A model generated the notes under the pieces. The model did no database searches, had not been told where the DNA came from, and saw only the letters and a program-made list of their open reading frames with translations. A stretch of DNA of 58,266 bases from a virus (lineage: Duplodnaviria > Caudoviricetes). Both the position numbers and the translations under genes were made by a program. The DNA is taken from the IMG/VR virus record IMGVR_UViG_3300042924_001589, positions 1 through 58,266 of that record; one strand, written 5' to 3'. Numbering within the stretch: position 1 is the stretch's first letter; the number at the start of each line of letters is the position of its first letter. This document shows, in pieces, positions 15,122-36,394 of this stretch.

Positions 15122-15559
15122 CTATTTGACGGGGCCGCCGACAATCCATGCATCGCATGTCCTGTCACCAGCACACTTAAAATGAAAGAACTCACAATAC
15201 CCTAAATTAGATGCTTCGATAACATCTTTGGCATTGCTTTCATGCGGCTCATCACCACCCTCTATCCCCTTGGTGATGCACTCCATCATCTGTGGAGTCT
15301 GGATAAAGGCGGCACAGTTACCGCATCGGGACTTCTTGGCTTCTACTGCGGGAACCATCCACATATCTGACTTCGCTTGCCAGAACTTGCGGCTTGGTTC
15401 GTTAGGATTTAGTGGGCCATAACCATATTCCTTGATCGCATGGTTACGGTTTTTCAGATTTACATGGACATCTTGCGTGGCAACCGGGCAAGCCTTGAGT
15501 CCTTTCTTGTAGGACTTGCGAATTTCGCTGGCCACTGCCTCGCGTTTAGCCGATGCCAT
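15122..15559 (-). CDS. Cys-rich conserved phage protein (possible Fe-S/Zn binding)
   Basis: CGNCAAF...GYC..F.FKC...RTCDAW. Confidence 0.7.
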   Translation of the reverse strand: MASAKREAVASEIRKSYKKGLKACPVATQDVHVNLKNRNHAIKEYGYGPLNPNEPSRKFWQAKSDMWMVPAVEAKKSRCGNCAAFIQTPQMMECITKGIEGGDEPHESNAKDVIEASNLGYCEFFHFKCAGDRTCDAWIVGGPVK

Positions 15560-16326
15560 TAGATCATCTTCCTGTCTATGTAAACCTTCTCTACATTGCC
15601 GCCAATAGCCTTTCTTTTAGGGGCCATAGCAGTGCTTATGAAATCTACTAACGCTCTATTTCTTGGGTGGCTCACTGCCTTTTCAAATTCGCTCAAAGAG
15701 TCAACATACTGTTGGCTGCTTTCGTAACCGCTGTTTCCAGTTCCAACCCAAGCAGATCCGAGGGGTATGCCAAGTCTCTTGGCCACCTTGTCTTTATTCG
15801 CCAGCCTTACTGCAAATGCAGCTGCTTGTCCGGTAATCCCTTGCTTCAGAAGCTTTTCGTAAAGCTCCCTGTCACCTTTCATGGCAGGATCATAGTTTAC
15901 ATCGTTCTGAAGTGCGTACTTGACACCCTGTGGATCACCCTCAAGGGCAGACTTTGGCACAACAGGATCTACGCCAAAAACACCAGACATTCCCTGGCCT
16001 TCCTTCAAGGCTAAAGCAGCAAGCTGCTCAGGAGATAACTGTGGAACTCCATACGGCTCCCCCAGTTTCATCGCTCTTACTTTTGCGTAAAGTTCCGGGG
16101 CATTTAGCTTTGTTGGCAGAGTTTCTATTCCACTTTTCCCACCATATTTTCCCGTGGGATCTGCCCTATAGCCACTAACATTGTCAGGGAAGGCGTCTAG
16201 ATTTACATCTAACCCTTTTAGCCAGTGACCCAGATTAGTCTGCCTCTCCCATTCTTTAAGACGATTCTTTTCAGCAATCTCTTTTCTAATGGTTTCGCGG
16301 CTCTTTGGAGGGTTTTTTACTGGCAT
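15559..16326 (-). CDS. Hypothetical protein, possibly a degenerate lysozyme/transglycosylase fold
   Basis: 255-aa ORF, visibly more AT-rich than its neighbours; C-terminal KAIGGNV motif. Confidence 0.55.
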   Translation of the reverse strand: MPVKNPPKSRETIRKEIAEKNRLKEWERQTNLGHWLKGLDVNLDAFPDNVSGYRADPTGKYGGKSGIETLPTKLNAPELYAKVRAMKLGEPYGVPQLSPEQLAALALKEGQGMSGVFGVDPVVPKSALEGDPQGVKYALQNDVNYDPAMKGDRELYEKLLKQGITGQAAAFAVRLANKDKVAKRLGIPLGSAWVGTGNSGYESSQQYVDSLSEFEKAVSHPRNRALVDFISTAMAPKRKAIGGNVEKVYIDRKMI

Positions 16327-16338
16327 TGTTGCAACCCT

Positions 16339-17823
16339 TCAGTAGTAGTTGATGCGACGGCGGCGAATCTTTTCCATCGGCTCATCGCTATCAATGGATA
16401 TGAACCCGCCCTGCCTAAATCTCAGCAAGGCTTGGGTGCTGGAGTCCACCAAGTCATCATGCTCGGCATTGGGGAAAGACGCGAATTCCTCCACGACTTC
16501 CTCTGCCCAGCGAGTCTCTGGTGTCCACACGACCCCGCTAGAGAACAAATCGCTGACCGCGTTGACTCTGGCCACCTTGTCATTACCGCGACTTGGGGTG
16601 AACTCCGATACCGGAATACCCATGGCTCTTAGCTCGTAGATCAGCGGTGCGCCAGCGGCCTTGGCTTCGACAATGAAGGCATCTGGGTTGTACTGCATGT
16701 ACATCTCATATGCCTTCTTCTTTAGTTCCGGAAATTCCATGCGTTCTTTCACAGCGTCCAGAAGGATGATGTTGTTCTGTGTTACGCCGGTTTCCGGATT
16801 TGGATACTTAAACACGCCCCACGTAGTGCAGGCGGAGAAGTCCGAGGTTTGCTTCTTGGTGAAAGCGGTGTCCCAGGACTGAATCAAAAACTCACAAGGC
16901 GGTGGGTCTTCTCGCTCCCATACCCGCCACCATTCTCGCTTAACAATCGCCCCTTCTTCAGAGGTCGGATTCTGCTGGTACTGAGCCGACCACTTACCTG
17001 TCGGCAGTTCCGATCGAATGGCCTCTAACTCACCTAGCGACCAGAACTCTGGCCACAACGCATTGCCCGAGGGCAAGATCGCGGGAAGCTCAATCACTTC
17101 CCATTCATCGGTGCCGCCTCGCTCAATGGAGGCTTTTAGCACCCTACCTGTCAGATCCCGCTGATGCCAGCGGGTCATCACGATAATGATGGCACCACCT
17201 GGCTGCAAACGCTGCCGAGGGCCGGAGGTGTACCACTCATAGGTCTTGTTGTAGACCGCAGGATCGCCTAAGGCAGCCTCCTGCTCACTATGAGGGTCAT
17301 CGATGATGAGAAGATCTGCACCCTTACCGGTGACAGCACCCCCAATACCGATGGCGAAATACTCACCACCTTTGTTGGTACTCCATCGGCCTGCGGCCTT
17401 GGAGTCTGCCTGCAAATCCACATCGGGAAAGATCTTGTGGTAGTCATCAGATGCAACAAGGTTACGAACCTTTCTACCGAATCCCACTGCCAGTTCCGCT
17501 GTGTGCGAACACTGAATGATCTTCTTGTTCGGGTAGTTACCCAAGAACCAAGCCGGCAGCATGTAAGAAGCAAACTCAGACTTGGTGTGACGAGGAGCCA
17601 TGTTGATGATCATGCGTTTGCACTCACCATTAGCCACTCGCTCAAAAGCCTTGGACATCACCTTGTGATGACTGCCCTCGATGAAGGCTGGCCACTGGCT
17701 TTTCACAAACTGGAGGAAGCCCCGCTGAGCTTTCTCGATCTCGCGGGCTTTCTCTAGCTCTTCGACTAGATGCAAGATCTCTGCCTTCTGAGTATCAGGC
17801 AGCAACGAAATCTTGCCAAGCAA
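16339..17823 (-). CDS. terL: Terminase large subunit
   Basis: Walker A-like MAPRHTKS, Walker B LLIIDDP, MTRW coupling motif, nuclease SWDTA and HDDLVDS. The start codon is uncertain (TTG). Confidence 0.93.
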   Translation of the reverse strand: MLGKISLLPDTQKAEILHLVEELEKAREIEKAQRGFLQFVKSQWPAFIEGSHHKVMSKAFERVANGECKRMIINMAPRHTKSEFASYMLPAWFLGNYPNKKIIQCSHTAELAVGFGRKVRNLVASDDYHKIFPDVDLQADSKAAGRWSTNKGGEYFAIGIGGAVTGKGADLLIIDDPHSEQEAALGDPAVYNKTYEWYTSGPRQRLQPGGAIIIVMTRWHQRDLTGRVLKASIERGGTDEWEVIELPAILPSGNALWPEFWSLGELEAIRSELPTGKWSAQYQQNPTSEEGAIVKREWWRVWEREDPPPCEFLIQSWDTAFTKKQTSDFSACTTWGVFKYPNPETGVTQNNIILLDAVKERMEFPELKKKAYEMYMQYNPDAFIVEAKAAGAPLIYELRAMGIPVSEFTPSRGNDKVARVNAVSDLFSSGVVWTPETRWAEEVVEEFASFPNAEHDDLVDSSTQALLRFRQGGFISIDSDEPMEKIRRRRINYY

Positions 17824-18503: not shown

Positions 18504-18518
18504 CATAACATTGTTATG
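18504..18518. repeat. 15-bp dyad CATAACATTGTTATG (copy 1)
   Basis: Read directly; just upstream of the promoter at 18530. Confidence 0.9.
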
Positions 18519-18529
18519 CAAAAAAGTGC

Positions 18530-18557
18530 TTGCATATGTATATACATATGAGAGAAT
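18530..18557 (+). promoter_or_regulatory. Putative early promoter with an 18-bp palindrome in the spacer
   Basis: TTGCAT-16-GAGAAT overlapping the perfect palindrome CATATGTATATACATATG; closely resembles the promoter at 19869. Confidence 0.6.
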
Positions 18558-18644
18558 AGCGAAGCGGTAGGTTCACCCTGTCGCTTGCTCTGTAAAAATC
18601 TGGAATTGGCGCGGATTCACCACACAACCATGGGGAATCCGAAA

Positions 18645-19127
18645 ATGACTATCAACATAAAGCCCGTAATTACCGCCTTTGACGCGACCGTGAAAGCACA
18701 CGGCTCTTTCAAGGCGAAAGTCCTCGAATTGTATTCGGGATGCAAGGCCGCCTCTGACTACCTTGCGCGACGCAAGGCCGTGAATGAGGCGATTGATAAG
18801 GCCGTGTCCGATAAGGGCAAGGCCTCAAAGGTAAAGGCCGCGATTAACACGGTATTAAACCGTGACGTTCTCGCGGCCGCTAACATCAAACTGGTAGCCC
18901 GCAAAGGCGGCCGCAAGGCCGCACCAAAGGCGACACCAAAGGCCGCGACCAGTACCGCGAAAGGCGGTAAGGCCGCGACCAGTACCGCAACGATTCAGGC
19001 CGCAACGCCTACCGATTTTCTCTCGGTGGTGTCGGCATGGGTAGCGGGAAAGAGTAAGGCCGAATTGACCTCGATGCGTTCGCGTATCGATGGCCTGTTC
19101 GCTTCTGCAATCGTCAATAGCAAGTAA
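18645..19127 (+). CDS. Ala/Lys-rich basic early protein (160 aa, histone H1-like linker)
   Basis: ATG at 18645 after GGGGA; KAAPKATPKAATSTAKGGKAATSTA tract encoded by a 20-bp direct repeat; has its own promoter and terminator. Confidence 0.75.
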   Translation: MTINIKPVITAFDATVKAHGSFKAKVLELYSGCKAASDYLARRKAVNEAIDKAVSDKGKASKVKAAINTVLNRDVLAAANIKLVARKGGRKAAPKATPKAATSTAKGGKAATSTATIQAATPTDFLSVVSAWVAGKSKAELTSMRSRIDGLFASAIVNSK

Positions 19128-19158
19128 AAACTAAAACGTCCGCGCCGATTCCATCACC

Positions 19159-19198
19159 AAGCCCCTAGGATTCACGTCCTAGGGGCTTTTTGCTTTTT
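19159..19198 (+). terminator. Rho-independent terminator
   Basis: AAGCCCCTAGGA-TTCACG-TCCTAGGGGCTT followed by a T-rich tract. Confidence 0.88.
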
Positions 19199-19199
19199 G

Positions 19200-19214
19200 C
19201 ATAACATTGTTATG
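19200..19214. repeat. 15-bp dyad CATAACATTGTTATG (copy 2), overlaps the terS stop codon
   Basis: Read directly; extends to GCATAACATTGTTATGC. Confidence 0.9.
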
Positions 19215-19770
19215 CGGAATCGCTCTCCGATTCCTCGCCATCCTCGCTGTCATCGCACTCGATGACGTCATCCTCATCATCCGTTTCGTCAGGGCTGACA
19301 GGCGCTTGCACTAACGCAGACAGACGGGCGATCAGTTCGCTCTCCACCTCGGCAGACGGACGCATGACGTTCGCCACGTTCACGTTCACCTGCTGACTGC
19401 CAGTCTCGATCAGTTTCGATGCCCTCGCCAGAATCGATAGGGCAGACACACGAGAGGCAGGCGGGCTGTTGCCATCACTTGCCTCCTCCTTCAGACGGGT
19501 GAGCGTCCACTCCCGCAGCCCGATGCTCTGCTCCAGCAACGTCTTCTCGCTCTTTCGCTTCAGCCCCTCGATGTGTCGCTGCACCCTCGGATCGCCCATC
19601 AGACGGGCGGCAGCAGAATGTATAGACGCTTTCTTCGCATTGTCTCCAGGGCGATACGCTGTGGCATACGCCTGCACCGGACGGTCGCCCTTCACCACTA
19701 ACTCGCAGAACTTGATGGCATTTTTAGTAAGAGGCTTCAGCCCTTGCATAGTCGGTTCATTGCTCGGCAT
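19210..19770 (-). CDS. terS: Terminase small subunit
   Basis: LT....KFC...V.G....QAY..AY...A.RL...P.V...I HTH-like N-terminus, SRVSAL..LA and acidic tail; upstream of terL on the same strand. Confidence 0.75.
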   Translation of the reverse strand: MPSNEPTMQGLKPLTKNAIKFCELVVKGDRPVQAYATAYRPGDNAKKASIHSAAARLMGDPRVQRHIEGLKRKSEKTLLEQSIGLREWTLTRLKEEASDGNSPPASRVSALSILARASKLIETGSQQVNVNVANVMRPSAEVESELIARLSALVQAPVSPDETDDEDDVIECDDSEDGEESESDSA

Positions 19771-19868
19771 GACGTTATGACCTTATAACGAATTTCGGAT
19801 GGTCGGAATGTACAGGGTGTGATAGGCGGCAGGCAATAGGCAGACGGGTGGATAAGTGTCAGTGGGTA

Positions 19869-19897
19869 TTGACATATGTATATACATTTGCTATAAT
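19869..19897 (+). promoter_or_regulatory. Perfect consensus sigma70 early promoter
   Basis: TTGACA-17 nt (TATGTATATACATTTGC)-TATAAT. Confidence 0.92.
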
Positions 19898-19930
19898 GGC
19901 GGAGCCAAAGTAGGAAATCACTTAACTCTA

Positions 19931-19945
19931 CATAACATTGTTATG
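19931..19945. repeat. 15-bp dyad CATAACATTGTTATG (copy 3)
   Basis: Read directly; ~30 nt downstream of the -10 box. Confidence 0.9.
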
Positions 19946-19949
19946 TGAA

Positions 19950-20460
19950 CTTCTACCGGTAGGCGGGATGGGCGAGCCTAGTTATGGGCGGTGACCCCTG
20001 AAACGATCTGGAAGAGGATCGGGACAGACTGACAATCTGTTCGGGCGTGAAGGCTGCTAGGTAGAAAGACGCGATAGCGTCTGTATGCGTAGCGAAGCGT
20101 AGCGCGCTGGCGTGTGGGCTGCACACGCAAGGAGTGAAGTCGTGACAAGTCGGTTTCTGTGTACACACACAAAAAGGTATTAGACAGCCCTTTAAGGGTA
20201 GACGATTGACGATAGATGGACTGAGGTCTGTCAGGTCACACCACCGGATAGCCGGTTCGATCGTGTTAAGCCTGTGTACATAGACGCCTAGATGACTCAC
20301 TCCGTAGCCGATACGGACAGGCAATGTATGTCCTGCGGCGTTAATGGCTGAAGCGCATAACAATGTTATGTCGCTGCCACCAGTATCCGCATATATCGCT
20401 GTACCGCATTATTGGACAGCCTAGGCTGCCTTGTTGGGAGATAGGGCAGCCGTGGGTGTT
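19950..20460 (+). ncRNA. Candidate large structured non-coding RNA / leader
   Basis: No credible long ORF. At least eight stems, including long-range pairs 19951-19957/20060-20066 and 20156-20167/20273-20284. Lies directly behind the consensus promoter. Confidence 0.5.
20356..20370. repeat. 15-bp dyad CATAACAATGTTATG (copy 4)
   Basis: Read directly. Confidence 0.9.
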
Positions 20461-20480
20461 CAACAAACCGGAGAGACGCA

Positions 20481-20702
20481 ATGCAACTGGATAAAGGTAC
20501 TTACGGTCGCCTCCAGACAGGCGGCACTACTGCCCGCGTGATGGACAACCTCCGCAACAAGGGTGCATCCCGTTGGGCAATCAAGATCAAGGGTCAGGTG
20601 ATTGTGGTGGGGGACAAACTCCACGCCGTCGCCCTGTATGAGAAGGCAGTGGCTCTGGGTGCAGAGCCTGCCCTAGTTCGCAGCGGCAAAACCGTTGCAT
20701 AA
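20481..20702 (+). CDS. Hypothetical early protein
   Basis: 73 aa with GGAG RBS; stop codon overlaps dyad copy 5. Confidence 0.7.
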   Translation: MQLDKGTYGRLQTGGTTARVMDNLRNKGASRWAIKIKGQVIVVGDKLHAVALYEKAVALGAEPALVRSGKTVA

Positions 20703-20712
20703 CTTTGTTATG
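20698..20712. repeat. Dyad variant CATAACTTTGTTATG (copy 5)
   Basis: One mismatch to consensus; overlaps a stop codon and precedes the AAAGGAG RBS. Confidence 0.85.
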
Positions 20713-20729
20713 TGAAAGGAGTGAAGGAA

Positions 20730-21089
20730 ATGGGTATTGATTATCAGGGTTTAGTGAACAAGGCACATGACGCGGGAATGTCGGCACTCAATGCCATTGT
20801 TCCCACCCCCATGGTGGTACGAGGTGGCGTACCTGGAGGTGAACAGCGGACATGGTACGTCGATGAAGGTGCGTGTGGATTCGCATGGATCGAGTTCGCA
20901 GGTAACACTGCCTTCGGTCGATGGGCGAAGAAGGCAGGCGTGGCTCACCCGCATTACCCGAAAGGGCTGTGTGTATGGGTGAGCGAGGGTGGGCAGTCGA
21001 TTGCTCGCAAGGAAGCCTATGCCATCGCCTTCGCCAAGGTGCTTAACGAGGCGGGTATTTCAGCCCGTCCCAATTCCAGACTGGATTGA
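20730..21089 (+). CDS. Conserved phage early protein (G.CGFAW family)
   Basis: GACGFAWI...QS..RKEAYA.AFA.VL...G.....SRLD motif; ATG at 20730. Confidence 0.75.
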   Translation: MGIDYQGLVNKAHDAGMSALNAIVPTPMVVRGGVPGGEQRTWYVDEGACGFAWIEFAGNTAFGRWAKKAGVAHPHYPKGLCVWVSEGGQSIARKEAYAIAFAKVLNEAGISARPNSRLD

Positions 21090-21097
21090 GGTGACGT

Positions 21098-21265
21098 ATG
21101 ACGCGCAAAGTAAGTAATCAGATTCTCGAAATGATCGAGGACGGCACCTTGAAAAAAGACATCGTGATCCTTGCCTGTCTCCAATACATGAGTGAGGACG
21201 AGGTGGCAGACATGGCTCGTATGAATGAGTTTCTGTGCGAGGAGGAACCAGATGATGAAGGCTAA
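21098..21265 (+). CDS. Small acidic early protein (55 aa, not in the ORF track)
   Basis: GAGGTG RBS; MTRKVSNQILEMIEDGTLKKDIVILACLQYMSEDEVADMARMNEFLCEEEPDDEG. Confidence 0.75.
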   Translation: MTRKVSNQILEMIEDGTLKKDIVILACLQYMSEDEVADMARMNEFLCEEEPDDEG

Positions 21266-21452
21266 AAAGTTACAGGTGACTATCGTATTTGAGTATGACG
21301 GCATCGACAACGCGGATAGTGTCGAGGCAGACGGGTGGATCGAAGGCATCAACGAGGATTTGATGGCATTCGGCATAGCCTGTGGCGCAAACCATGTATG
21401 GGTAGACGACGCCAAGGTCGTGGAGGTGGATCGGTCTACTACCTTGTCTTGA
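21252..21452 (+). CDS. Small acidic hypothetical protein
   Basis: GGAGGA RBS before ATG at 21252/21255. Confidence 0.65.
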   Translation: MMKAKKLQVTIVFEYDGIDNADSVEADGWIEGINEDLMAFGIACGANHVWVDDAKVVEVDRSTTLS

Positions 21453-21476
21453 CGTATATACAAAAGAGAGTATAAT
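21449..21476 (+). promoter_or_regulatory. sigma70-type early promoter
   Basis: TTGACG-16 nt-TATAAT with a GTATATAC core shared with the other two early promoters. Confidence 0.75.
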
Positions 21477-21539
21477 TTGCGTGTTGAATAATTATTAAAC
21501 GGAAACCCGCAAAGCGGGTGAACGCGGGGCTTGTCCCCA

Positions 21540-21554
21540 CATAACAATGTTATG
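21540..21554. repeat. 15-bp dyad CATAACAATGTTATG (copy 6)
   Basis: Read directly; immediately before the AAAGGAG RBS of the amidoligase gene. Confidence 0.9.
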
Positions 21555-21570
21555 CAAAGGAGTGAAGACC

Positions 21571-23034
21571 ATGCATATTTTCGGTTCTAAGTATTTCGCT
21601 TGGGCTTTTGACGATCCGCATGACCTATCGCGTTTCAGGCAGCGATCGTTTATCAATGCCTACCTAAAACTGTACAGCGAGAATCGTGAGACTGCTGTCA
21701 GTCTCATGGAGAAGTTCGTCAACTCCACGCCATCCTATCGTACCAACGAGTACCAAGGTACTGACGGGCGGCACAACATCACACGCCATCACTGCGTGAC
21801 TTTCATCCTGCGACCGTTGACCGACGCCTGCAAGGACGAGGGCTTCATGCTGCCATGGGTGATGTACCAAAACGAAGTCAGTTATCGGGATGAGTCCATC
21901 TCGACAGATCGACTACGCCTGTGGCATGGGTTCTGCAACGAACCCAATGTATGCGATGGCGACGATGCTGTTGAATACATGCAGAACGCAATCGGCATGT
22001 TCACCTGCGAGGACTGCGGTCACCCCACCGCAGAAGATGACTGTCCCAGCGTGGGCGACTACACCAGCATCTGCACGAGCTGCTGCGACATTAGTTATAC
22101 ATGGTCAGACTACGAGGATCGCTACATCCACAACGACGATGTATGCACTGCCCTCGATCAGTATGGCAATGGGGTGTCCATCAGTTCTAGCAACACTGGT
22201 GATTTCACCTATGATGAAGATCGCGAGATGTACGTCCACGACGAGTACGAGCCGCCGCTCATCCGCGATTACCACTCATCCAAGAGCAGCATCTCGTACA
22301 AGCCAGACGAGTGGACTGCTAGGTATGACCGATACCTGGGCGTCGAGTTGGAAGTCGAGTGCGTCGAGACCAGTCGCACTTCACAGGCGCAGATGATCAA
22401 GGATTACGTCGAGAACAGCGGTCATCGTCTGTTCTTCGAGCGTGATGGTTCGCTACAGAGCGGCTTTGAGATGATCACTGATCCCATGTCGCTACCCGCG
22501 CACCGTGACCTGTTCTCTTTCCTCAAGGAGCGACCGATCACTCGCGGTATGCGTAGCCACAACACCACCACTTGTGGTCTCCATGTCCATGTCAGCCGCT
22601 CCGGTCTGACTGACCTTCAAATCCAGAAGGTCGTGGCGTTCGTGAATTCGCCAGACAACGAATGGTTCATCCGCGCATTGGCTCGCCGCTACTCATCAGG
22701 TTTCTGTGTGGTCAAGTCCGACAAGAAGATCGGCAAGTCCATTCATATCGGACTCGACAGATACGAGGCAGTCAATCTCACTAACCGCCGCACTATCGAG
22801 TTCCGCATCTTCCGAGGCAGTCTCAAGTACGAGGCCGTGATTGCAGCAATCGAGTTCTGCCACGCCATACTCGAGTTCTGCAAGCCAGCCAACACTGGCA
22901 TCAACCAACTGTCAGCCGGTGCGTTCCTGACCTTCTGCTCAAAGCAGTTGGCAGCAGACACCAAAACCCTGCGAGCGTATGTATCGCAGCGCATCAGCGG
23001 ACGAGCAGAAGTAACAGAAGAAGAAGCCGCATAA
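21571..23034 (+). CDS. Putative amidoligase (COOH-NH2 ligase type 2) with an N-terminal Cys-rich region
   Basis: GVELEVE, DGSL..GFE..T.P, TCGLHVHVS, RY.AVN and TIEFRIF motifs; ATG at 21571. Confidence 0.85.
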   Translation: MHIFGSKYFAWAFDDPHDLSRFRQRSFINAYLKLYSENRETAVSLMEKFVNSTPSYRTNEYQGTDGRHNITRHHCVTFILRPLTDACKDEGFMLPWVMYQNEVSYRDESISTDRLRLWHGFCNEPNVCDGDDAVEYMQNAIGMFTCEDCGHPTAEDDCPSVGDYTSICTSCCDISYTWSDYEDRYIHNDDVCTALDQYGNGVSISSSNTGDFTYDEDREMYVHDEYEPPLIRDYHSSKSSISYKPDEWTARYDRYLGVELEVECVETSRTSQAQMIKDYVENSGHRLFFERDGSLQSGFEMITDPMSLPAHRDLFSFLKERPITRGMRSHNTTTCGLHVHVSRSGLTDLQIQKVVAFVNSPDNEWFIRALARRYSSGFCVVKSDKKIGKSIHIGLDRYEAVNLTNRRTIEFRIFRGSLKYEAVIAAIEFCHAILEFCKPANTGINQLSAGAFLTFCSKQLAADTKTLRAYVSQRISGRAEVTEEEAA

Positions 23035-23044
23035 CATTGTTATG
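23030..23044. repeat. 15-bp dyad CATAACATTGTTATG (copy 7), overlaps the amidoligase stop codon
   Basis: Read directly. Confidence 0.9.
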
Positions 23045-23082
23045 TAAGGCTCGACAATCAAATCAACCAAGGAGTAATGACA

Positions 23083-24018
23083 ATGTGTTTGTTAGTAGAA
23101 CAAAAGCAAGATACCCAATTCGACGACGCCTTCCTGCGTGACGTGTACAGCAAGAACCGTGACGGCATCGGCATCATGTACGCCGAGGCTGGTCATGTTG
23201 TAGTCAAGAAGTTGCTGCCCAAGACAGCGCAGGACTTTGTCGAGTTCTATCGGCAGTACGCCGATGGCCGCGACTGCATCTGGCATGCCCGTATGCAGAC
23301 TCACGGCGACATCGACCTCGACAACTGCCATCCCTACATGGTGACCAAGAACATCTGGATGGCACACAACGGCATCCTCACATCAGGCAATGACAACGAC
23401 AAGAAGAAGTCCGATACCTGGCACTTCATCCGCAATGTCATCGAGCCTGCTGTGTCGTACAACCCTGCGCTACTGCTCGATCCGCAGTATCAGGCGTTCC
23501 TTGGCGATCTAATCGGCGGCACTAACAAGTTCGGATTCATGACACACACCGGTGAGTCCGTCATCATCAATCGCAGTGCAGGCGTGACCTTCCAAGGTGC
23601 GTGGCTCTCCAACACCTACGCATGGTCTGCCGGTAAGTACGGACTGGGCGGTAAGACTTCAGGTCTGTCCGTATATTCATCCTATGGCAGTCGCTATGCC
23701 GGTGAGTATTCCTACTACGACTGGGAGGAGGGCTATTCCTACAACAAGAAAAGCAAGGAGGTATCGCGCAACTCACCGACCGAAATGAAGACGGTGGTCA
23801 AGGCTGCCTACAACTCATGGCTCAACAACAACCTACAGCAGTGGGTCAACGATGCGCCGTGGAAAGCTAGCGCCTTGTTGGAGTTCGCCTACGAGAGTGC
23901 CGAATGCGAGGACATCGTGGCAGATGATCCGGTTATGGCAGCGCAGTGGATCGAGGAGTTGTTCACCGAACACGGTCTGACACCGTTCAACATGCAAATC
24001 AACTGGGATGCGGCATAA
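23083..24018 (+). CDS. Class II (Ntn) glutamine amidotransferase
   Basis: Start at 23083 (8 nt after AAGGAG) gives Met-Cys, the N-terminal nucleophile; N.DG.G, HAR..THG, NCHP, HNG and SDT motifs. Confidence 0.87.
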   Translation: MCLLVEQKQDTQFDDAFLRDVYSKNRDGIGIMYAEAGHVVVKKLLPKTAQDFVEFYRQYADGRDCIWHARMQTHGDIDLDNCHPYMVTKNIWMAHNGILTSGNDNDKKKSDTWHFIRNVIEPAVSYNPALLLDPQYQAFLGDLIGGTNKFGFMTHTGESVIINRSAGVTFQGAWLSNTYAWSAGKYGLGGKTSGLSVYSSYGSRYAGEYSYYDWEEGYSYNKKSKEVSRNSPTEMKTVVKAAYNSWLNNNLQQWVNDAPWKASALLEFAYESAECEDIVADDPVMAAQWIEELFTEHGLTPFNMQINWDAA

Positions 24019-24033
24019 CAAGGGAGTGATGAC

Positions 24034-24444
24034 ATGGGACTAGATATGTATCTAACTGGTGAGAAGTCTTTCACCAATGATTTCAATGAGCCAGCAAACA
24101 ATGTTATGGAAGATGGCTTCCGACTGAAGTCAAAGCGATATGAACTGGGCTACTGGCGCAAGCACCCGAATCTGCATGGCTACATCGTGCAGAGTTTCGC
24201 CAGTGGTGTGGATGATTGCCGAGAGATATACCTTGCTGAACCTGACATCAGGGAAATCATATCGGCTATCAAGACTAGGAAACTGCCATTCACTGAAGGC
24301 TTCTTCTTCGGCGTCTCTCAAACAACCGATGAAAGGATTGCCGAGGATGTGGCTATCTTTCAATCCGCTTTGCTCTGGATGACTAACATGGAAAGCAGAA
24401 TGCCAGGGGAATACCGGATGGTGATCTATCAGGCCAGTTGGTAG
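24034..24444 (+). CDS. Conserved phage protein (MGLDMY...YWRK...Y.ASW family)
   Basis: Characteristic motifs; GGGAG RBS. Confidence 0.75.
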   Translation: MGLDMYLTGEKSFTNDFNEPANNVMEDGFRLKSKRYELGYWRKHPNLHGYIVQSFASGVDDCREIYLAEPDIREIISAIKTRKLPFTEGFFFGVSQTTDERIAEDVAIFQSALLWMTNMESRMPGEYRMVIYQASW

Positions 24445-24475
24445 CCGCGTTGCGGCTGTATGCAGCCATCGGCTG

Positions 24476-24490
24476 CATAACATTGTTATG
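24476..24490. repeat. 15-bp dyad CATAACATTGTTATG (copy 8)
   Basis: Read directly; preceded by two tandem hairpins and followed by an AGGAG RBS. Confidence 0.9.
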
Positions 24491-24505
24491 TAATAGGAGA
24501 TAAGC

Positions 24506-24739
24506 ATGAGCCAGTACAGTGACGATTATTACTACAACGACGATTACGATATGCATCGTGCATATCATGAGCAGAGTCAGCATCAACAGCGAGTGCTGGA
24601 GATACAGACACTGATTCGATATCACAAAACCCTAGTGGATTGCTTAGAGACGGAACTCAAGGTGATGGAGTTAGGCTTTGGTAAGAGGAAGTTCTCTGAT
24701 GCTATCCGCAGCAAACCGAATACAGACATCCCTTTCTAA
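24506..24739 (+). CDS. Hypothetical protein
   Basis: 77 aa; AGGAG RBS. Confidence 0.7.
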   Translation: MSQYSDDYYYNDDYDMHRAYHEQSQHQQRVLEIQTLIRYHKTLVDCLETELKVMELGFGKRKFSDAIRSKPNTDIPF

Positions 24740-25160
24740 GTTGTCTCGCAAGTTTCTTGGCTTGTCTGACTTCATCGAGGGACTGCCTATCGAGCATGCT
24801 CCACACCTGGCCGTGGCTGGCACTGACGGCAGCCGCCTGATGTTCAACTTCGACCACGTGGATATGCTCGATGACGATCAACTCGATGGGCTTGTCATGC
24901 ACGAGATCATTCATGTGATCGATATGCATGCCGAGCGAGCAACAGACAAGAACCTGACCCTGTGGAACTCCGCCTGTGATCTACGCAGCAACTACATTGT
25001 GCGTAGTGTGCAGATGCGAGTCCCGCAGGGTACGGCGGACAACGCAGCCTATGATGGCATGAATGTCGACTCCATCTATGGTGATCTGCTGTCGCAGTAT
25101 CGCCGGATGCGTAGGCAGTTTATGCCTAGGGCTAAAGCAATCAAAGGTAAGTTAGTGTGA
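24699..25160 (+). CDS. Stand-alone DUF2201-N-like putative metallopeptidase
   Basis: AGTDG..L.FN, HEIIH (HExxH), H..R and WN.ACD...N motifs; probable ATG at 24699. Confidence 0.7.
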   Translation: MLSAANRIQTSLSKLSRKFLGLSDFIEGLPIEHAPHLAVAGTDGSRLMFNFDHVDMLDDDQLDGLVMHEIIHVIDMHAERATDKNLTLWNSACDLRSNYIVRSVQMRVPQGTADNAAYDGMNVDSIYGDLLSQYRRMRRQFMPRAKAIKGKLV

Positions 25161-25342
25161 GAAAGAAAGATCAAACCATAGACAGGAAGATCAACGAGAT
25201 CGCCAGTCTTCGCAACCAGATAGCGGAGATGGAGATCGCGATCAACAAAGAACGCGGTGAGCGTTTAGTTGCAGAGGTGATGCTATGCGCCATGTTGTTT
25301 GGCGCTGGTGTTGTGTTGGGTTACTGGTTAGCAGGAGTGTGA
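25157..25342 (+). CDS. Small coiled-coil protein with a C-terminal transmembrane segment
   Basis: 61 aa with a hydrophobic C-terminus; coupled to its neighbours. Confidence 0.6.
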   Translation: MRKKDQTIDRKINEIASLRNQIAEMEIAINKERGERLVAEVMLCAMLFGAGVVLGYWLAGV

Positions 25343-25343
25343 C

Positions 25344-25580
25344 ATGTCATTTTCAGATAGACAGAAAGCAGCAGTGGGTTTGGCGCTTGGAATTATGTGC
25401 ATCACTGGCGGATTCATCGGTGGCTACTACGTGACACAGACCATCAATGAGATTCAGGCAGTGCAAAGTTGCGGTGCGATGTATCACCCGAAAACCGCTA
25501 AATTCCAGTGGATTCCATGCGATCCCACCAACATGACGATCATCTCTGAGGAGGACAGAGCGTGGCAGGAAAAGCAGTAA
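25344..25580 (+). CDS. Small membrane-anchored protein
   Basis: N-terminal hydrophobic helix; AGGAG RBS. Confidence 0.6.
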   Translation: MSFSDRQKAAVGLALGIMCITGGFIGGYYVTQTINEIQAVQSCGAMYHPKTAKFQWIPCDPTNMTIISEEDRAWQEKQ

Positions 25581-25828
25581 AGAAGAACAAGGCGCTGGAC
25601 GATCTGATCGTGGTACTGAATAGCCACACCTACGAGATGATCCAGTCTCTGATTGTGGCTGAACTCATGTCCACTCTGGACTGCCTTGAGCATGACCTGA
25701 AGAAGCGCAAGGCTGGTGGATATGAGTACGGTGTCTTCTCGTCTGACAAGCGGGAGGACATCAAGATAATCCAGCAGCACATCGACGCGATGAAGTTGGT
25801 CACCGCCTACTTCGGTGTCAAGGAATGA
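25562..25828 (+). CDS. Hypothetical protein
   Basis: 88 aa; GGAGGA RBS before a GTG start. Confidence 0.6.
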   Translation: MAGKAVKKNKALDDLIVVLNSHTYEMIQSLIVAELMSTLDCLEHDLKKRKAGGYEYGVFSSDKREDIKIIQQHIDAMKLVTAYFGVKE

Positions 25829-25831
25829 GAT

Positions 25832-26050
25832 ATGGAACGCAAGTACACCAAGATATCCAGGTACAACCCGCGCATATCGTTTGATCAGTACGCAACCCTA
25901 CTGCAGCGCAAAGCCAATGCCGTCAACAATAGGACTAAGTATCGTGATCTGGTGAAGGCGTGGGGCATAGGGCAGTCTGTATTGGGGACTGCCCTCAAGC
26001 GCGGTATCAAGCAATACGACTACAAGATATGGAAGGAGACGCAAAGATGA
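25832..26050 (+). CDS. Small basic hypothetical protein (possible HTH)
   Basis: 72 aa; YRDLVKAWGIGQSVLGTALKRG resembles a helix-turn-helix. Confidence 0.55.
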   Translation: MERKYTKISRYNPRISFDQYATLLQRKANAVNNRTKYRDLVKAWGIGQSVLGTALKRGIKQYDYKIWKETQR

Positions 26051-26232
26051 ATGGCAAACCAAGAGCCACTCTGGTCGGTTTCAAAACACTACCGGAAGCA
26101 CAGCAATGTTTGTATCAGTTGACTAAGGACTACATGATTTCGGTAGTGACCGAAGGCACATTCGATGGTACGCCGCTGGCCTACATCGTGGTGCGTAAGG
26201 ACTACGAGCCGATCGTGAAGGGGCAGTTATGA
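26047..26232 (+). CDS. Hypothetical protein
   Basis: ATGA overlap with the upstream gene; AAGGAG RBS. Confidence 0.6.
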   Translation: MNGKPRATLVGFKTLPEAQQCLYQLTKDYMISVVTEGTFDGTPLAYIVVRKDYEPIVKGQL

Positions 26233-26417
26233 AACTCTATGACGTTCCAAGAAACAGTCGCATCAGATTGCTAGGCGACACGCTATCGAGTGACATGGAA
26301 TTAAATTTCCACCACATCGATGGCATGTATTCCTATTGCACAGATGATGATGGGAATGTAATGCATCTGGCAGCATGGACTGAGATTGAATTAGTTAAAC
26401 AGGAGCAACCGCGATGA
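26229..26417 (+). CDS. Hypothetical phage protein
   Basis: MKLYDVPRNSRI...FHHIDGMYSYC...G...HL family; ATGA overlaps. Confidence 0.65.
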   Translation: MKLYDVPRNSRIRLLGDTLSSDMELNFHHIDGMYSYCTDDDGNVMHLAAWTEIELVKQEQPR

Positions 26418-26620
26418 CCCGCGATGACATTTTTAGAATGGCTCACGAAGTCGGATTAAAAACGCCATGGGATTTGATGGAATATCAATGGAAATTTGCC
26501 GCCCTCGTTGCCGCCGCCGAGCGGGAGGCGTGTGCGAAAATCTGCGACAAAATCCCTGCGCTAGCCATCAATCAAGCCAAAGCAGCGGCTAAACAAATTC
26601 GGGCGAGGGGTGGAAAGTAG
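26414..26620 (+). CDS. Small phage protein of the AAAEREACA family
   Basis: FAALVAAAEREACAK.C...A..IRARG motif common in proteobacterial phages. Confidence 0.7.
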   Translation: MTRDDIFRMAHEVGLKTPWDLMEYQWKFAALVAAAEREACAKICDKIPALAINQAKAAAKQIRARGGK

Positions 26621-26623
26621 ATC

Positions 26624-27106
26624 ATGCATATAACATTGAGCGAAGCAGAGCAGAGGTTAGCTAAGTACTTAGCTAAGCAGCGGTATGACAGCGCCAGAGA
26701 GAAAGGTCTGCCTAATCGGAAGATAGGGGATCAGTCCAACGAACTCACCGATCTGGAGGGTATCGCTGCCGAGATCGCCTTCTGCAAACTCGCCAATGTC
26801 TACCCCGACCTAGACCTTGATCACACCAAGGCAGAGGACTGCTACCTTCGAGACGGCAGGTCAGTGGATGTCAAGTCCACCACCTATGAGAGCGGCAGGC
26901 TATTGGCAGTCAAATGGAAAGATGCCACACAGGTGGATCTGTTTGTCCTGATGGTGGGCAAGTTCCCCAAGTACCGGTGTGCCGGCTTCTTGACATCGAC
27001 CGAGTTGCTCGATGCCAAAAGGTTGACTAACCTCGGGCATGGAGAGGGCTATGCCGCTACCCAAAACGAGTTACATGATCTATCCATACTGAACATAGGA
27101 GATTGA
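26624..27106 (+). CDS. Putative PD-(D/E)xK nuclease-fold protein
   Basis: G..AE.AF...D......VDVKST pattern. Confidence 0.5.
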   Translation: MHITLSEAEQRLAKYLAKQRYDSAREKGLPNRKIGDQSNELTDLEGIAAEIAFCKLANVYPDLDLDHTKAEDCYLRDGRSVDVKSTTYESGRLLAVKWKDATQVDLFVLMVGKFPKYRCAGFLTSTELLDAKRLTNLGHGEGYAATQNELHDLSILNIGD

Positions 27107-27107
27107 C

Positions 27108-27413
27108 ATGATCGATGATGAGTCACCTCCAGGTAGCTGGCAGGAGGAGATGAACCGGATGCCGTGGAAATGGGGGCAGCACCCCTCTATCCCACCGAAT
27201 GAAGCACTAGCCAGACTGCAAGCAAGGAATCTGTACGTTGAGTACACGGCACTGAGCGACGAGATCCGAAGACTTCAATCCGATTTGTTCTTAGCAAGAG
27301 AGAGGTTAGCAAGATATGTCGAACAAGAACGAACTCAAAAAGCAGATCTATCAGGAAATCAAAGCCCTTCACGGCAGGATTCAAGCCCTCAATGCCAAGC
27401 TGACTCGACTTGA
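27108..27413 (+). CDS. Hypothetical protein
   Basis: 101 aa; AGGAG RBS. Confidence 0.55.
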   Translation: MIDDESPPGSWQEEMNRMPWKWGQHPSIPPNEALARLQARNLYVEYTALSDEIRRLQSDLFLARERLARYVEQERTQKADLSGNQSPSRQDSSPQCQADST

Positions 27414-27498
27414 GATTGACTCACCCGAGCCGTTCCATTTCGATGATGACTACATACCACCCTTCTTGAGAAAGAAAGATGTCCCCTATACCCATTGA
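27316..27498 (+). CDS. Small coiled-coil hypothetical protein
   Basis: 60 aa; GAGG RBS; overlaps neighbours. Confidence 0.5.
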   Translation: MSNKNELKKQIYQEIKALHGRIQALNAKLTRLEIDSPEPFHFDDDYIPPFLRKKDVPYTH

Positions 27499-27931
27499 GA
27501 TGAGACTACGTGCAGAGCAACTGATCTATGAGTTGCATGGCTGGTCTTCAGCACACCCCGCCACTGCCTACTCCGACTGCATGTCCGAGGCGGCCTATCT
27601 GCTGTCCGACATGATGAAGGTACTCAACGCACGGCCTGTCAAGGGATTGACACCCGAGGCTGTATTGCAGGAAGCCAAGGACATGATTGCCGAGCGTGGC
27701 AAGCGCAGGGACAACGGGCAGGAACGCTCGATGCAAAGGATTGTCAAGACCTTCGAAGCCCTCACCGATCACAAGATGACCGAGGTCGAGGGCTGGTTAT
27801 TCATGGTGGTTCTCAAGCTCTGCCGAGAACGCACCGGATCTGACATCGATAACTGGATAGATGGGGCTGCCTACATGGGGTTGGCAGCCGAGGCTGTGGA
27901 AAAAAGCAGGGGCAATGCCCCCTCTGCATAA
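27479..27931 (+). CDS. DUF6378-like domain protein
   Basis: L.EA...I.ERG...I...F....G..FM..LK..R....D.W.D.A.Y..LA pattern. Confidence 0.7.
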   Translation: MSPIPIEMRLRAEQLIYELHGWSSAHPATAYSDCMSEAAYLLSDMMKVLNARPVKGLTPEAVLQEAKDMIAERGKRRDNGQERSMQRIVKTFEALTDHKMTEVEGWLFMVVLKLCRERTGSDIDNWIDGAAYMGLAAEAVEKSRGNAPSA

Positions 27932-27941
27932 CAATGTTATG
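27927..27941. repeat. 15-bp dyad CATAACAATGTTATG (copy 9), extended by TTAAAT into a XerD-like arm
   Basis: CCTCTGCATAA-CAATG-TTATGTTAAAT; overlaps a stop codon. Confidence 0.9.
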
Positions 27942-28004
27942 TTAAATTTCACGCCTCACCACCCCATCTCATGCGTCTTCACTCCGTGGTTGTGGTGAAC
28001 TTTT

Positions 28005-28038
28005 GCCCGTTGGCGTCAAACCCAACGGGCTTTTTTTT
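28005..28038 (+). terminator. Rho-independent terminator ending the early operon
   Basis: GCCCGTTGG-CGTCAAAC-CCAACGGGC followed by eight T. Confidence 0.88.
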
Positions 28039-28048
28039 GGAGTAAGAA

Positions 28049-28429
28049 ATGGCTAGAAAGAAGAAACCCGAGATCCCTGAAGAGATCGACATCAATGTCG
28101 TAATGCCAAGGATCTTGATCATGAAGAACGATGAAGCCTGTCTGCGTTCAGCAGAGAGGTTGGTGGAAGTGCTGGCGCAATGCTGCGCCGCTATCATCTC
28201 GGCCAACAGAGATGCCTCGATCTGCATGGGCATGGTCAACCATGTCTACGAAATCAACGGGACATTGCGGGTAGCCTTGGCGACCCATACCCCGCATGAT
28301 GTGGATCATTTCCGCATGACAATGATCGCCCTGTCGACTGCCTACGAAGAGATCATGGGCGGACACCAGATAGAACTCGTTGACCCTGTGGACTTTAGCG
28401 GGTTCGATGTCGCCCGAATGGAGGCATGA
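28049..28429 (+). CDS. Hypothetical protein
   Basis: 126 aa; GGAG RBS. Confidence 0.65.
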   Translation: MARKKKPEIPEEIDINVVMPRILIMKNDEACLRSAERLVEVLAQCCAAIISANRDASICMGMVNHVYEINGTLRVALATHTPHDVDHFRMTMIALSTAYEEIMGGHQIELVDPVDFSGFDVARMEA

Positions 28430-28659
28430 TGAAGTACAAAGCAGGAAAGACTAAGGGGATTGCCCTAGCGCCAGCTGCGGCAGATAACCCCCTAGCCAAA
28501 AGGATGCTTGAACAGATAGGCGGAACTGACTATCAATTATTAAAGACATTTCAGCAACACTTTGGCGCAAAGCTAGTGCATTACCAAGACAATGCAGGCG
28601 AGGTTGGCAAGCGACCGAAGTGGGCAGACCCCCCTCTGCCCAACCAAAAGGTGGCATAA
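28426..28659 (+). CDS. Hypothetical protein
   Basis: 77 aa; ATGA overlap; GGAGG RBS. Confidence 0.65.
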   Translation: MMKYKAGKTKGIALAPAAADNPLAKRMLEQIGGTDYQLLKTFQQHFGAKLVHYQDNAGEVGKRPKWADPPLPNQKVA

Positions 28660-28685
28660 TCTGTATTGACATATAGGAGGTCGAC

Positions 28686-29075
28686 ATGGCTTACACCAAA
28701 GCGAGCCTGCGTGAGCGGCTCAAGAATCAGATCATGGGCGAGAACGTGGCCGGCACGAAGGCAGGCCAGTGGTCAGCTCGCAAAGCACAGCTCCTTGGCA
28801 AGCGTTACAAGGAGGCTGGTGGCGGTTACTCCGGCAGCAAAACCAAAGCACAGAAGAGCTTAAGCAAATGGACAAAGCAAGAATGGACGACCAAATCTGG
28901 CAAGCCTTCGAGCAAGACTGGCGAAAGATATTTACCGAAGAAGGCAGTGAAAGCCCTGTCCTCGGAGGAGTACGCCAAGACGACAGCCGCCAAGCGCAAG
29001 GGCAAAGCGCAGGGCAAGCAGTTCGTGAAGCAGCCCAAAGCGATCGCCAAGAAGGTTAAGAAGTACCGAGACTAA
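28686..29075 (+). CDS. DUF5872-like highly basic protein
   Basis: GQWSARKAQLL...YK.AGGGY...QKSL.KWT.Q.W.T..G...RYLP; AGGAGG RBS. Confidence 0.8.
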   Translation: MAYTKASLRERLKNQIMGENVAGTKAGQWSARKAQLLGKRYKEAGGGYSGSKTKAQKSLSKWTKQEWTTKSGKPSSKTGERYLPKKAVKALSSEEYAKTTAAKRKGKAQGKQFVKQPKAIAKKVKKYRD

Positions 29076-29079
29076 TCCC

Positions 29080-29421
29080 ATGCCAAAGAAGAAGAACGAA
29101 GACAAGATGCTGATCTTCCGTTGCCATGCCGCAACAATCTTGAAGGTCAAGGCCATCGCAGCAGCTGAGGGGCGGACGGTATCTGCCCAGATCCGTCACA
29201 TGATCGAGGACTACCCCCTCAAGCCCCGCTTCATCAAGGCTGCTAAGAACACCCTGAAGAAGAAGCCCGATGCTAGGCCGCAGGAGATCATCGAGGAGGC
29301 TCTGGCAGCCAAGTACCCTACCGAGGTAGCGACCCCAGACACGCCGCCTGTAAAGCCGTCTCCGCCAACTCAGTGGTGGAACGCACAGACCGACGAGAGC
29401 CAGGAGCCAGCGTCGGGTTGA
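29080..29421 (+). CDS. Putative ribbon-helix-helix (Arc-like) DNA-binding protein
   Basis: MLIFRC....LKVKAIAAAEGRTVSAQIRHMIE matches the Arc/CopG pattern. Confidence 0.6.
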   Translation: MPKKKNEDKMLIFRCHAATILKVKAIAAAEGRTVSAQIRHMIEDYPLKPRFIKAAKNTLKKKPDARPQEIIEEALAAKYPTEVATPDTPPVKPSPPTQWWNAQTDESQEPASG

Positions 29422-36145: not shown

Positions 36146-36394
36146 ATGAAAGATAAAGATCAAAAGGGAAAACTTTCGATCGTTAAAAATGATGGCGAGG
36201 TAACGGAGTTACATCCCAGTGCAGACACTGTGCTGAAAGGATTTATTGGGCAGGGGATTAGTCAAGTGCTGGTGATCAGCCTTGATAACGAAGGCACCTT
36301 CCGAACAGGAAGCAACACCTCATCCAAGGGAGAGATGTTGTTCCTGGTCGAGCAGTTTAAGCACTGCCTACTGGAAGGTGAGTTCGATGCTTAG
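36146..36394 (+). CDS. Hypothetical protein
   Basis: ATG at 36146 after AGGA; LFL.E.FK..LL motif. Confidence 0.6.
   Translation: MKDKDQKGKLSIVKNDGEVTELHPSADTVLKGFIGQGISQVLVISLDNEGTFRTGSNTSSKGEMLFLVEQFKHCLLEGEFDA

Follow-up and report, generated by a model that had tools for sequence, protein, structure and literature searches.

Arrays of palindromes between early genes recur in phages, some of them with no known function. The closest described case to the array examined here is the 17-bp dyad repeat of the Cluster O mycobacteriophages (Corndog and relatives), TGTTCGG-NNN-CCGAACA, which has 7-bp inverted arms and a 3-bp spacer and is present in more than 30 copies genome-wide, about one third of them in coding regions; in the portion of that report used here, the function and the binder of the repeat are given as not known, and few if any repeats are reported to be involved in insertions or deletions (indels) (PMC4351075). 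Here we describe an array of comparable layout in a 58,266-bp stretch of DNA (the window), which comprises a whole IMG/VR virus record (IMGVR_UViG_3300042924_001589) with a terminal overlap, rated 100% complete, and is a complete 58-kb podophage-like genome, its source being lake water. Nine copies of a 15-bp dyad, CATAACAWTGTTATG, one of them with a mismatch, punctuate the early region of this genome. The best-supported reading, to which we assign a probability of roughly one half on the evidence of sequence comparison, is that they are operators or roadblocks through which a dimeric DNA-binding protein would control early transcription. No prior description of this motif, or of the regulation of this phage group, was found in the literature.

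As far as that source extends, the window has in common with the Cluster O genomes invariant arms held 3 bp apart, a variable trinucleotide between them, many mostly intergenic copies, and a phage that is not obviously temperate; in both cases, too, the orientation of the centre is independent of the direction of transcription (7:1 in the relative G011, see below). Because the sequence differs, the Cluster O repeat is an analogue, not a homologue. Unlike that genome-wide, partly intragenic repeat, the nine copies in the window are found in the early region only, with none in the body of an open reading frame (ORF), and one indel among the relatives (that between contigs G001 and G002) does involve the repeats. 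A second lineage of relatives, subgroup B, comes nearer to the Cluster O pattern in having intragenic copies.

The stoperators of Cluster A mycobacteriophages, served by L5 gp71-type repressors, resemble the dyads of the window in being found both at the early promoter and at intergenic positions without a promoter, at which a bound repressor would block elongation; in the part of the account on which we draw, they are asymmetric, are bound by a monomer with two DNA-binding domains, and belong to temperate phages (PMC9283540), unlike the site in the window, which is a perfect palindrome restricted to the early region. When the 72 ORFs of the window were scanned against PHROGs and Pfam, neither an immunity-repressor-like protein nor an integrase was found. 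Another parallel is provided by the promoter early stem-loop (PeSL) cassettes of T4-type phages, each a strong sigma-70 promoter plus a terminator stem-loop, which, in the excerpt used here, are short regulatory repeats between early non-essential genes, and recombination between them leads to gene insertion, deletion and replacement in close relatives (PMC2839356). Unlike PeSL, the dyad is not terminator-like, only three of the nine copies are near a promoter-like site (18530, 19869 and 21449), mini-circles were not seen, and most indels are located away from the dyads. Paired operators flanking a promoter are familiar from the gal (OE/OI) and lac (O1/O3) systems of E. coli, in which, as in the dyad pair of some relatives, one operator is upstream and one is transcribed, at a spacing of nearly whole helical turns; unlike gal and lac, no cognate repressor is known here, and several relatives, as well as the window itself, are without the upstream copy of the early-promoter pair.

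The dyad array and its conservation

The initial annotation, made from the letters of the window alone, had described the array and its confinement to the early region, and on both points it was borne out. The window contains eight exact copies of the dyad (Table 1), against a mean of 0.00 in 100 dinucleotide-preserving shuffles; with up to two mismatches there are nine, against 0.04 expected, the added copy being that at 20698 (CATAACTTTGTTATG, one mismatch). All nine are located within 18504–27941 (9.4 kb of 58.3 kb), between ORFs or on ORF ends. Four provide a GCA-TAA end, to terS on the minus strand and to the ORFs ending at 20702, 23034 and 27931, and three (20698, 21540 and 24476) are followed by AAGGAG or AGGAG and a start codon within 2–4 nt, again as originally noted. 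Allowing three mismatches raises the number of matches to 13 by adding weak sites at 17656, 24094, 51092 and 56806, so that the absence of the dyad from the late genes holds at up to two mismatches. The partial sites that had been reported near 24013 and 24097 do exist in the window, as a CATAACA left half and a three-mismatch site, but neither is kept in relatives.

Table 1. Coordinates of the dyads, promoter-like sites and associated genes in the window
Feature	Positions	Strand	Remarks
Dyad D_a	18504–18518		Divergent gap beside terL-side genes; centre about −54 from predicted start of 18645-gene promoter
Dyad D_b	19200–19214		Between 18645-gene terminator and terS stop; gives terS its GCA-TAA end (minus strand)
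Dyad D_d	19931–19945		Centre about +34 from predicted early-promoter start
Dyad D_e	20356–20370		Tip of conserved hairpin in non-coding leader
Dyad D_f (one mismatch)	20698–20712		Overlaps stop of 20481 ORF; 3 nt before AAGGAG
Dyad before amidoligase ribosome-binding site	21540–21554		3' of promoter-like site 21449–21476
Dyad on amidoligase stop	23030–23044		Precedes GATase gene
Dyad before 24506 ORF	24476–24490		After GC-rich hairpin; 4 nt before AGGAG; upstream of DUF2201_N gene
Dyad on stop of 27479 ORF	27927–27941		64 nt before terminator-like site 28005–28030
Isolated left half-site CATAACA	24014–24020		On GATase stop; window-specific
Weak three-mismatch site	24094–24108		Inside ORF 24034–24444; window-specific
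Early promoter-like site, TTGACA-17-TATAAT with TG	19869–19897	+	12/12 sigma-70-type matches; points into early genes
Weaker promoter-like site of 18645 gene, TTGCAT-17-AGAATA	18530–18558	+	Read by eye
Promoter-like site	21449–21476		Upstream of 21540 dyad; promoter scan
Non-coding leader of early transcript	19905–20480	+	Carries D_d and D_e
First early gene, 73 aa, candidate binder	20481–20702	+	Homologues in 7/7 subgroup A contigs
Lys/Ala-rich 160-aa gene, candidate binder	18645–19127	+	Homologues in 7/7 subgroup A contigs
113-aa weak ribbon-helix-helix match, candidate binder	29080–29421	+	Homologues in G001, G008, G012, G013
terS	19210–19770	−	PHROGs/Pfam scans
terL	16339–17823	−	PHROGs/Pfam scans
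Amidoligase	21547–23034	+	PHROGs/Pfam scans
Class-II glutamine amidotransferase (GATase)	23077–24018	+	PHROGs/Pfam scans

An exact-pattern scan of IMG/VR returned at least 126 stretches with the motif, most of them single matches, as chance predicts for a collection of this size; several contigs among the matches listed carry many copies. Ten IMG/VR contigs related to the window have 4–8 copies each at up to one mismatch, and the control pattern, read backwards, gave zero in all ten (related contigs compared with the window are designated by G and L numbers, G000 being the window itself). G001, G002, G003, G008 and G009 align with the window at 66–83% nucleotide identity and form subgroup A, to which a search based on terS added G012, G003-type copies and G011/L154; G012, likewise complete, is the closest relative (87–95% identity). 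The members of subgroup B (G005, G006, G007 and G010) encode terL proteins with ~65–67% amino-acid identity to that of the window, and also have its portal, GroES-like gene, virion protein and endolysin in common.

Relatives of 65–90% nucleotide identity have dyads at matching gene junctions. Within subgroup A the dyad slots are kept while the surrounding background is just 65–80% identical, and in a five-way alignment from terS to the first early gene the dyad and the promoter hexamers appear as islands of identity. The D_a slot is filled in all seven genomes (the window, G001, G002, G003, G008, G011 and G012), D_d is present in all eight contigs that cover the early promoter, the amidoligase gene has a filled slot on either side in all six covering genomes, and the slot before the DUF2201_N gene is filled in five of six, G011 being without it. 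D_b is present in G003, G009 and G011, has a centre one base shorter in G012, and is absent in G001, G002 and G008; the G012 counterpart of D_f is one base shorter as well. D_e is found in the window, G003 and G012, with a longer hairpin in its place in G001, G002 and G008, and the 27927 copy is present in G012 and L148 and not in G001 or G008. The dyad is a real, strongly selected element.

Over 54 oriented sites the arms are invariant, the final G is present in 51 and the flanks are without consensus, whereas the central base is A in 14, C in 9, G in 6 and T in 25; the statement that this base alternates between A and T thus applies to the window but not to its relatives, in which all four bases occur. 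At positions 7 and 9, which would be in the loop of any hairpin, A and T are nevertheless kept complementary to each other, as is necessary for a DNA palindrome. In G011 and L154 the same slots are occupied by GACATAAC-(CGA/TGA/CCA/TCG)-GTTATGTY, with eight copies in G011. Since these two contigs keep the arms and change the centre, the constant feature is CATAAC-N3-GTTATG, which holds in all lineages, with ANT as the centre in the group of the window; arms around a variable 3 bp, as in Cluster O, are thus present. The asymmetric centre of G011 is oriented 7:1; the odd copy is located between the GATase and amidoligase genes, which are on one strand and belong to the operon that also contains the neighbouring copies, so that reading of the centre does not depend on the strand. 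The core that stays invariant in subgroup B is TAACANTGTTA, and copies of TAAC-N3-GTTA, of which there are 24 in G006 and 18 in G010, are clustered beside terL. Five of the dyads of G006 are part of the coding sequence of its MoxR and VWA genes, with N-I/N-V as the encoded residues, and two of these five are position-matched in G010.

A longer version of the dyad was encountered in G004, a phage unrelated to the window that has its own DNA polymerase, helicase and primase, two ParB-like genes and a different head gene; several of its copies are at gene junctions where the ATG of the dyad could be a start codon.

Promoter context and the early leader

The early promoter-like site is kept in G003, G012, G001, G002, G008, G011 and L154. 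With the transcription start taken 7 nt after the −10 hexamer, the dyad centre is at +34 in the window, +37 in G012 and +35 in G003, each with a single copy, at −64 and +33 in G001, G002 and G008, and at −54 and +44 in G011 and L154. The spacing of the pair is 96–97 bp in all five two-copy contigs, and between lineages the place of the promoter within the pair differs by roughly one turn of the helix. In the window, the 18645-type gene has its own promoter and terminator and is flanked by D_a and D_b. The promoter of this gene is accompanied by a dyad with its centre at −54 in the window as well as in G011 and L154, the counterpart promoter in G011/L154 being TTGACA-16-TATACT. Relative to these predicted starts, the dyads are thus at a fixed position and helical phase around a promoter, as is typical of operator pairs.

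In both plus-strand promoters, the stretch that separates the −35 and −10 hexamers contains another palindrome, CATATGTATATACATATG at 18533–18550 and ATGTATATACAT at 19876–19887. That of the early promoter is kept in G003, G008 and G009 and has a near form in G001, G002 and G011. This palindrome is possibly an operator in its own right, for a different protein.

The early promoter is separated from the first early gene by a conserved leader of ~520–640 nt, with counterparts in L146, L133, L131 and L138. In the window it contains no convincing ORF. Rfam gave no match at the gathering score anywhere in the window, the matches within 19700–20600 were all sub-threshold, and no tRNA was found in the window. 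RNAalifold, applied to five leader sequences, predicted 147 pairs, 46 of them with compensatory changes. The leader of the window has an extra ~50 nt (about 20047–20103) that are missing in one lake-metagenome contig and in the relatives. Taken together, the leader may be an undescribed structured phage RNA.

Operator or roadblock function and candidate binders

The operator or roadblock reading, which the initial annotation had listed among three, draws its support from the invariance of the arms together with the freedom of the centre, from slots that are fixed in a background of 65–80% identity, and from copies that bracket the early promoter at fixed spacing; what did not follow was the identification of a binder among the candidates then proposed. 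Under the scheme that we favor, the dyad would act as a double-stranded DNA site, with arms of 6–7 bp (CATAAC / GTTATG) and three change-tolerant central bases, and would be recognised by a sequence-specific protein in the form of a symmetric dimer or dimer of dimers. One copy is situated in the part that the strong sigma-70-type early promoter would transcribe first and, in some lineages, a second precedes it by ~96–97 bp and faces the same side of the helix, such that occupancy might shut down or throttle early transcription via roadblock or looping, repression being the presumed direction of control. Copies wedged between early genes could be further roadblocks or insulators along the early operon, and the same protein may control the separately transcribed 18645 gene through the copy centred at −54.

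The protein itself would be phage-encoded (the ribbon-helix-helix (RHH) candidate 29080, or the 20481 or 18645 product) or host-encoded. The 20481, 18645 and 29080 products are found in every subgroup A contig that covers their place, and only the last of the three shows any DNA-binding signal; none of them has a detectable homologue in subgroup B. The candidates named at the outset fared unevenly, in that the 18645 product proved to be kept but had no fold match, 29080 gave a weak RHH match, and the helix-turn-helix-like 25832 ORF was dropped: its homologues are found in G012 only, and it therefore cannot serve all dyad-bearing relatives. An AP2-like appearance of the 20481 protein, noticed by eye, was likewise set aside, as Pfam gave nothing at E≤1, a PDB profile search returned only spurious short TPR-repeat matches, and Foldseek found no match. 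ESM Atlas look-ups of the 20481 and 18645 proteins gave scores of at most 0.81, which is at noise level, and the 18645 protein is not homologous to its position-equivalent in subgroup B (hhalign probability 0.1).

RHH-like proteins are encoded in both lineages, those of subgroup B having been judged by eye: in G010 a tandem-RHH gene is located between two dyads, and the end of a 53-aa RHH-like ORF of G006 is 8 nt away from one. A tetramer of the RHH repressor Mnt recognises a dyad of 17 bp, and a protein of this fold could thus be accommodated at a site of this type. Since subgroup B shares head genes but not early genes with the window and nevertheless has 18–24 copies in G006/G010, the binder may be host-encoded, or too diverged to detect. 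A lineage that is common in lake metagenomes, with a clear promoter context, a natural specificity variant (G011) and a second lineage with different early genes, makes a useful system, suited to finding the binder by co-variation or pull-down and to asking whether initiation, elongation or RNA is the level of control.

Alternative explanations

Several observations weigh against an operator or roadblock. The transcription starts are predictions from consensus hexamers only. Among 48 sites from six genomes, a Shine-Dalgarno (SD) sequence and start codon are found within 30 nt at 16 on the early-sense strand and at one on the other strand, and in 11 of those 16 the SD begins at most 6 nt after the dyad, which suits a role in translation at the RNA level. 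D_e caps a conserved, covarying hairpin of the leader, and the G012 counterparts of the 19200 and 20698 copies have lost one central base, a change that would disturb a rigid dimer more than a hairpin and that an RNA element could tolerate. None of the candidates is established as the binder: the matches of the 29080 product to Pfam RHH_5 (E=0.0091) and RHH_1 (E=0.017) are both below the curated cut-offs, and the AlphaFold2 models of the 20481 product (predicted local distance difference test score 72.4) and of the all-helical 18645 product (65.6) have no PDB fold match in Foldseek at E≤0.001. Because the early and replication proteins that subgroup B has in common with the window are limited to a DUF2201_N-like domain and one 55-aa ORF, no phage-encoded binder common to both lineages is visible. 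Finally, the unrelated G004 contains four copies of ACCATAACANTGTTATGGT, its longer version of the dyad, and one one-mismatch copy, scattered over 47.7 kb (L143–L145).

The SD, leader-hairpin and central-base observations would suit an RNA element, in which the transcribed dyad would form a hairpin of 6–7 bp with a 3-nt loop, bound by a phage or host RNA-binding protein or nuclease, with the effect that the polycistronic early mRNA is processed or stabilised, or that the gene with the following SD is repressed at the level of translation. The location of D_d inside the transcript, at about +27 to +41, is in line with this, as is the G011 lineage, in which the three loop bases have changed while the arms are the same and the stem is extended to 8 bp. 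We nonetheless regard an RNA element as unlikely: D_a and the upstream copy of the early-promoter pair (D_c) precede their promoters, at fixed helical phase; the hairpin is A/U-rich and weak (−3.2 to −7.5 kcal/mol with flanks) and is missing from the minimum-energy fold of its 75-nt context at five of nine sites; a compensatory arm change is seen in none of the 54 sites; the would-be loop positions 7 and 9 are kept as a complementary pair; and the core of subgroup B leaves a stem of 4 bp only. Roles at the DNA level other than that of transcriptional operator or roadblock appear, as a class, rather improbable to us. Among these, the array might load a host or virion-delivered protein onto the early end of the genome, as the initial annotation had proposed for the first-injected DNA. 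The protein would protect or compact the DNA or assist its entry or segregation, much as happens at dispersed centromere-like or KorB/ParB-type sites. The persistence of the motif in two lineages that have head genes but not early genes in common, its density in subgroup B, where copies are partly inside MoxR and VWA coding sequence, and the lack of an adjoining promoter at most copies are all compatible with such loading, and the Cluster O authors, in the portion of their report used here, took a similar view of their 17-bp repeats (PMC4351075). No ParB, partition ATPase or integrase was detected among the 72 ORFs scanned against PHROGs, however, the conservation of the dyads that bracket the early promoter favors transcription, and the ends of the record are an assembly overlap, so that the order of DNA entry is not deducible from them; we hold this role to be quite unlikely. 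Since the arms are unchanged in two lineages with unrelated early and replication modules, and in one of them are written into coding sequence, it is conceivable, if rather doubtful, that the dyad is tied to no phage early gene and is a site for a host or virion-delivered protein recruited onto the first-expressed part of the genome, a portable punctuation that outlives gene replacement and seeds cassette exchange.

That the dyads are primarily recombination cores, crossover points making the early genes exchangeable cassettes, was also proposed at the outset, and part of the evidence is in its favor. G001 and G002 are 98.8% identical over 992 aligned bases, except for a 609-bp insert in G002 that carries two ORFs, the junctions of this insert being direct repeats of CATAACATTGTTATG followed by a near-identical ribosome-binding site (RBS) and start, AAGGAG...ATGGCT; this pair shows directly how a repeated operator+RBS unit can mediate the gain or loss of a cassette. 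Likewise, the dyad-bounded slot between the 20481 and amidoligase genes contains different genes in the window, G003, G008 and G002 and none in G001, and an exonuclease, a Sak-like annealing protein and a RusA-like resolvase are among the products of the phage. In contrast, all four indels between the window and G012 (15559–16339, 21093–21276, 23994–24020 and 26538–26618) are at least 271 bp from any dyad, just three of 58 ends of homology blocks are within 30 bp of one, and a recombination substrate would not need strict conservation of sequence and slot, or promoter geometry. No joint at a dyad was seen in the contigs of four lake metagenome runs, a comparison of low power; contigs cannot show rare circles or RNA ends. 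Recombination as the main role is thus very improbable. Given the position of the G012 indels and of nearly all block ends away from the dyads, the recombination that does take place at the dyad+RBS repeat is best viewed as a probable by-product, comparable to that at PeSLs (PMC2839356): as the units, ~35 bp long, recur, they may occasionally serve homologous recombination that adds or removes gene cassettes.

Other known elements were considered and rejected. Hairpin promoters of the N4 type serve a virion RNA polymerase, and no RNA polymerase family was matched among the 72 ORFs scanned. The dyad lacks the G+C-rich stem and T run of an intrinsic terminator, and the terminator scan lists no dyad as a stem, although the neighbouring hairpin 24459–24479 uses the dyad as its tail. 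TTGTTA within the dyad could be a −35 hexamer, but no −10 was found at 16–18 nt at the sites checked by eye, and the promoter scan lists no dyad hexamer. The 27927 copy continues as TTATGTTAAAT, which we take to resemble the XerD arm of E. coli dif; this applies only to that copy and its G012 counterpart, and the arm spacing is one base too short for a dif/Xer-like site. Among host transcription-factor boxes, none of those for Zur, Fur 7-1-7, DeoR, KdgR and LexA is known to have the same arm orientation and spacing.

The genome and its relatives

The genome is organized into a long minus-strand block of packaging, head, tail, ejection and lysis genes, a plus-strand block (20481–29421) in which small genes encode, among others, the amidoligase, the GATase and a DUF2201_N protein, and a replication/recombination block with a primase-helicase in addition to the exonuclease, annealing protein and resolvase named above. 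Besides the terminase genes, the minus-strand block includes those for the portal, a major head protein, an endolysin and a polyvalent protein of 2339 aa. The PHROGs/Pfam scans of the 72 ORFs gave no match to integrase, RNA polymerase, DNA polymerase or ParB families. By terL, the closest cultured phages are just 52–58% identical: the Pelagibacter phages HTVC027P and HTVC023P, 023Pt_psg01, and the lake phage DSL-LC04, the last of which has no copy of CATAACNNNGTTATG in 61.5 kb. A megablast search of the early region against GenBank phages gave no match, and the HTVC023P-type genome paper makes no mention of palindromes, inverted repeats, promoters or operators (PMC9599517).

Among the lake-water metagenome runs listed, 19 contain at least a third of the sampled words of the window, and no RNA run is listed among those that carry its sequence. 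The sole match in species-representative genomes is a 17-kb contig (L166, DAIQAR010000022.1) binned with a Candidatus Nanopelagicaceae metagenome-assembled genome, the terL of which is 67% identical to that of the window; no dyad was found in the 13.5 kb examined, just 2 kb of which is upstream of terL. Because the binning of phage contigs is unreliable, this contig gives at most a slight indication of the hosts of the wider group.

Two observations concern terL and its surroundings. A 255-aa ORF (15559–16326, minus strand), between terL and the next packaging-side gene, is absent in G012, where the flanks are 87% identical, and is a recent gene-sized indel without a dyad. In G002 (L132, 3524–5929) the terL frame has 801 aa as compared with ~500, with ~900 bp inserted between the halves that align to the terL of the window; this insert may be an intein or of the homing-endonuclease type. 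Farther along the minus strand, the 2339-aa protein (36391–43410) matches the LPD38 domain (E=8.5e-33), with a further match to ART-PolyVal below its cut-off, and is probably an injected polyvalent protein.

In the early block, the amidoligase_2-type and class-II glutamine amidotransferase-type genes (21547–24018) are each framed by dyads and are kept as a pair in all subgroup A genomes. The stretches 26498–26538 and 28760–29040, inside ORFs 26414–26620 and 28686–29075, have a several-fold higher summed depth in contigs of four lake metagenomes, many of which diverge on both sides, and look like conserved islands common to many related phages. A 55-aa ORF in the variable slot (21098–21265, plus strand) has its sole homologue, with 43% identity, in the subgroup B contig G010, and this homologue shows a CxxC...CxxC spacing that, by eye, recalls TraR/DksA-type zinc fingers.

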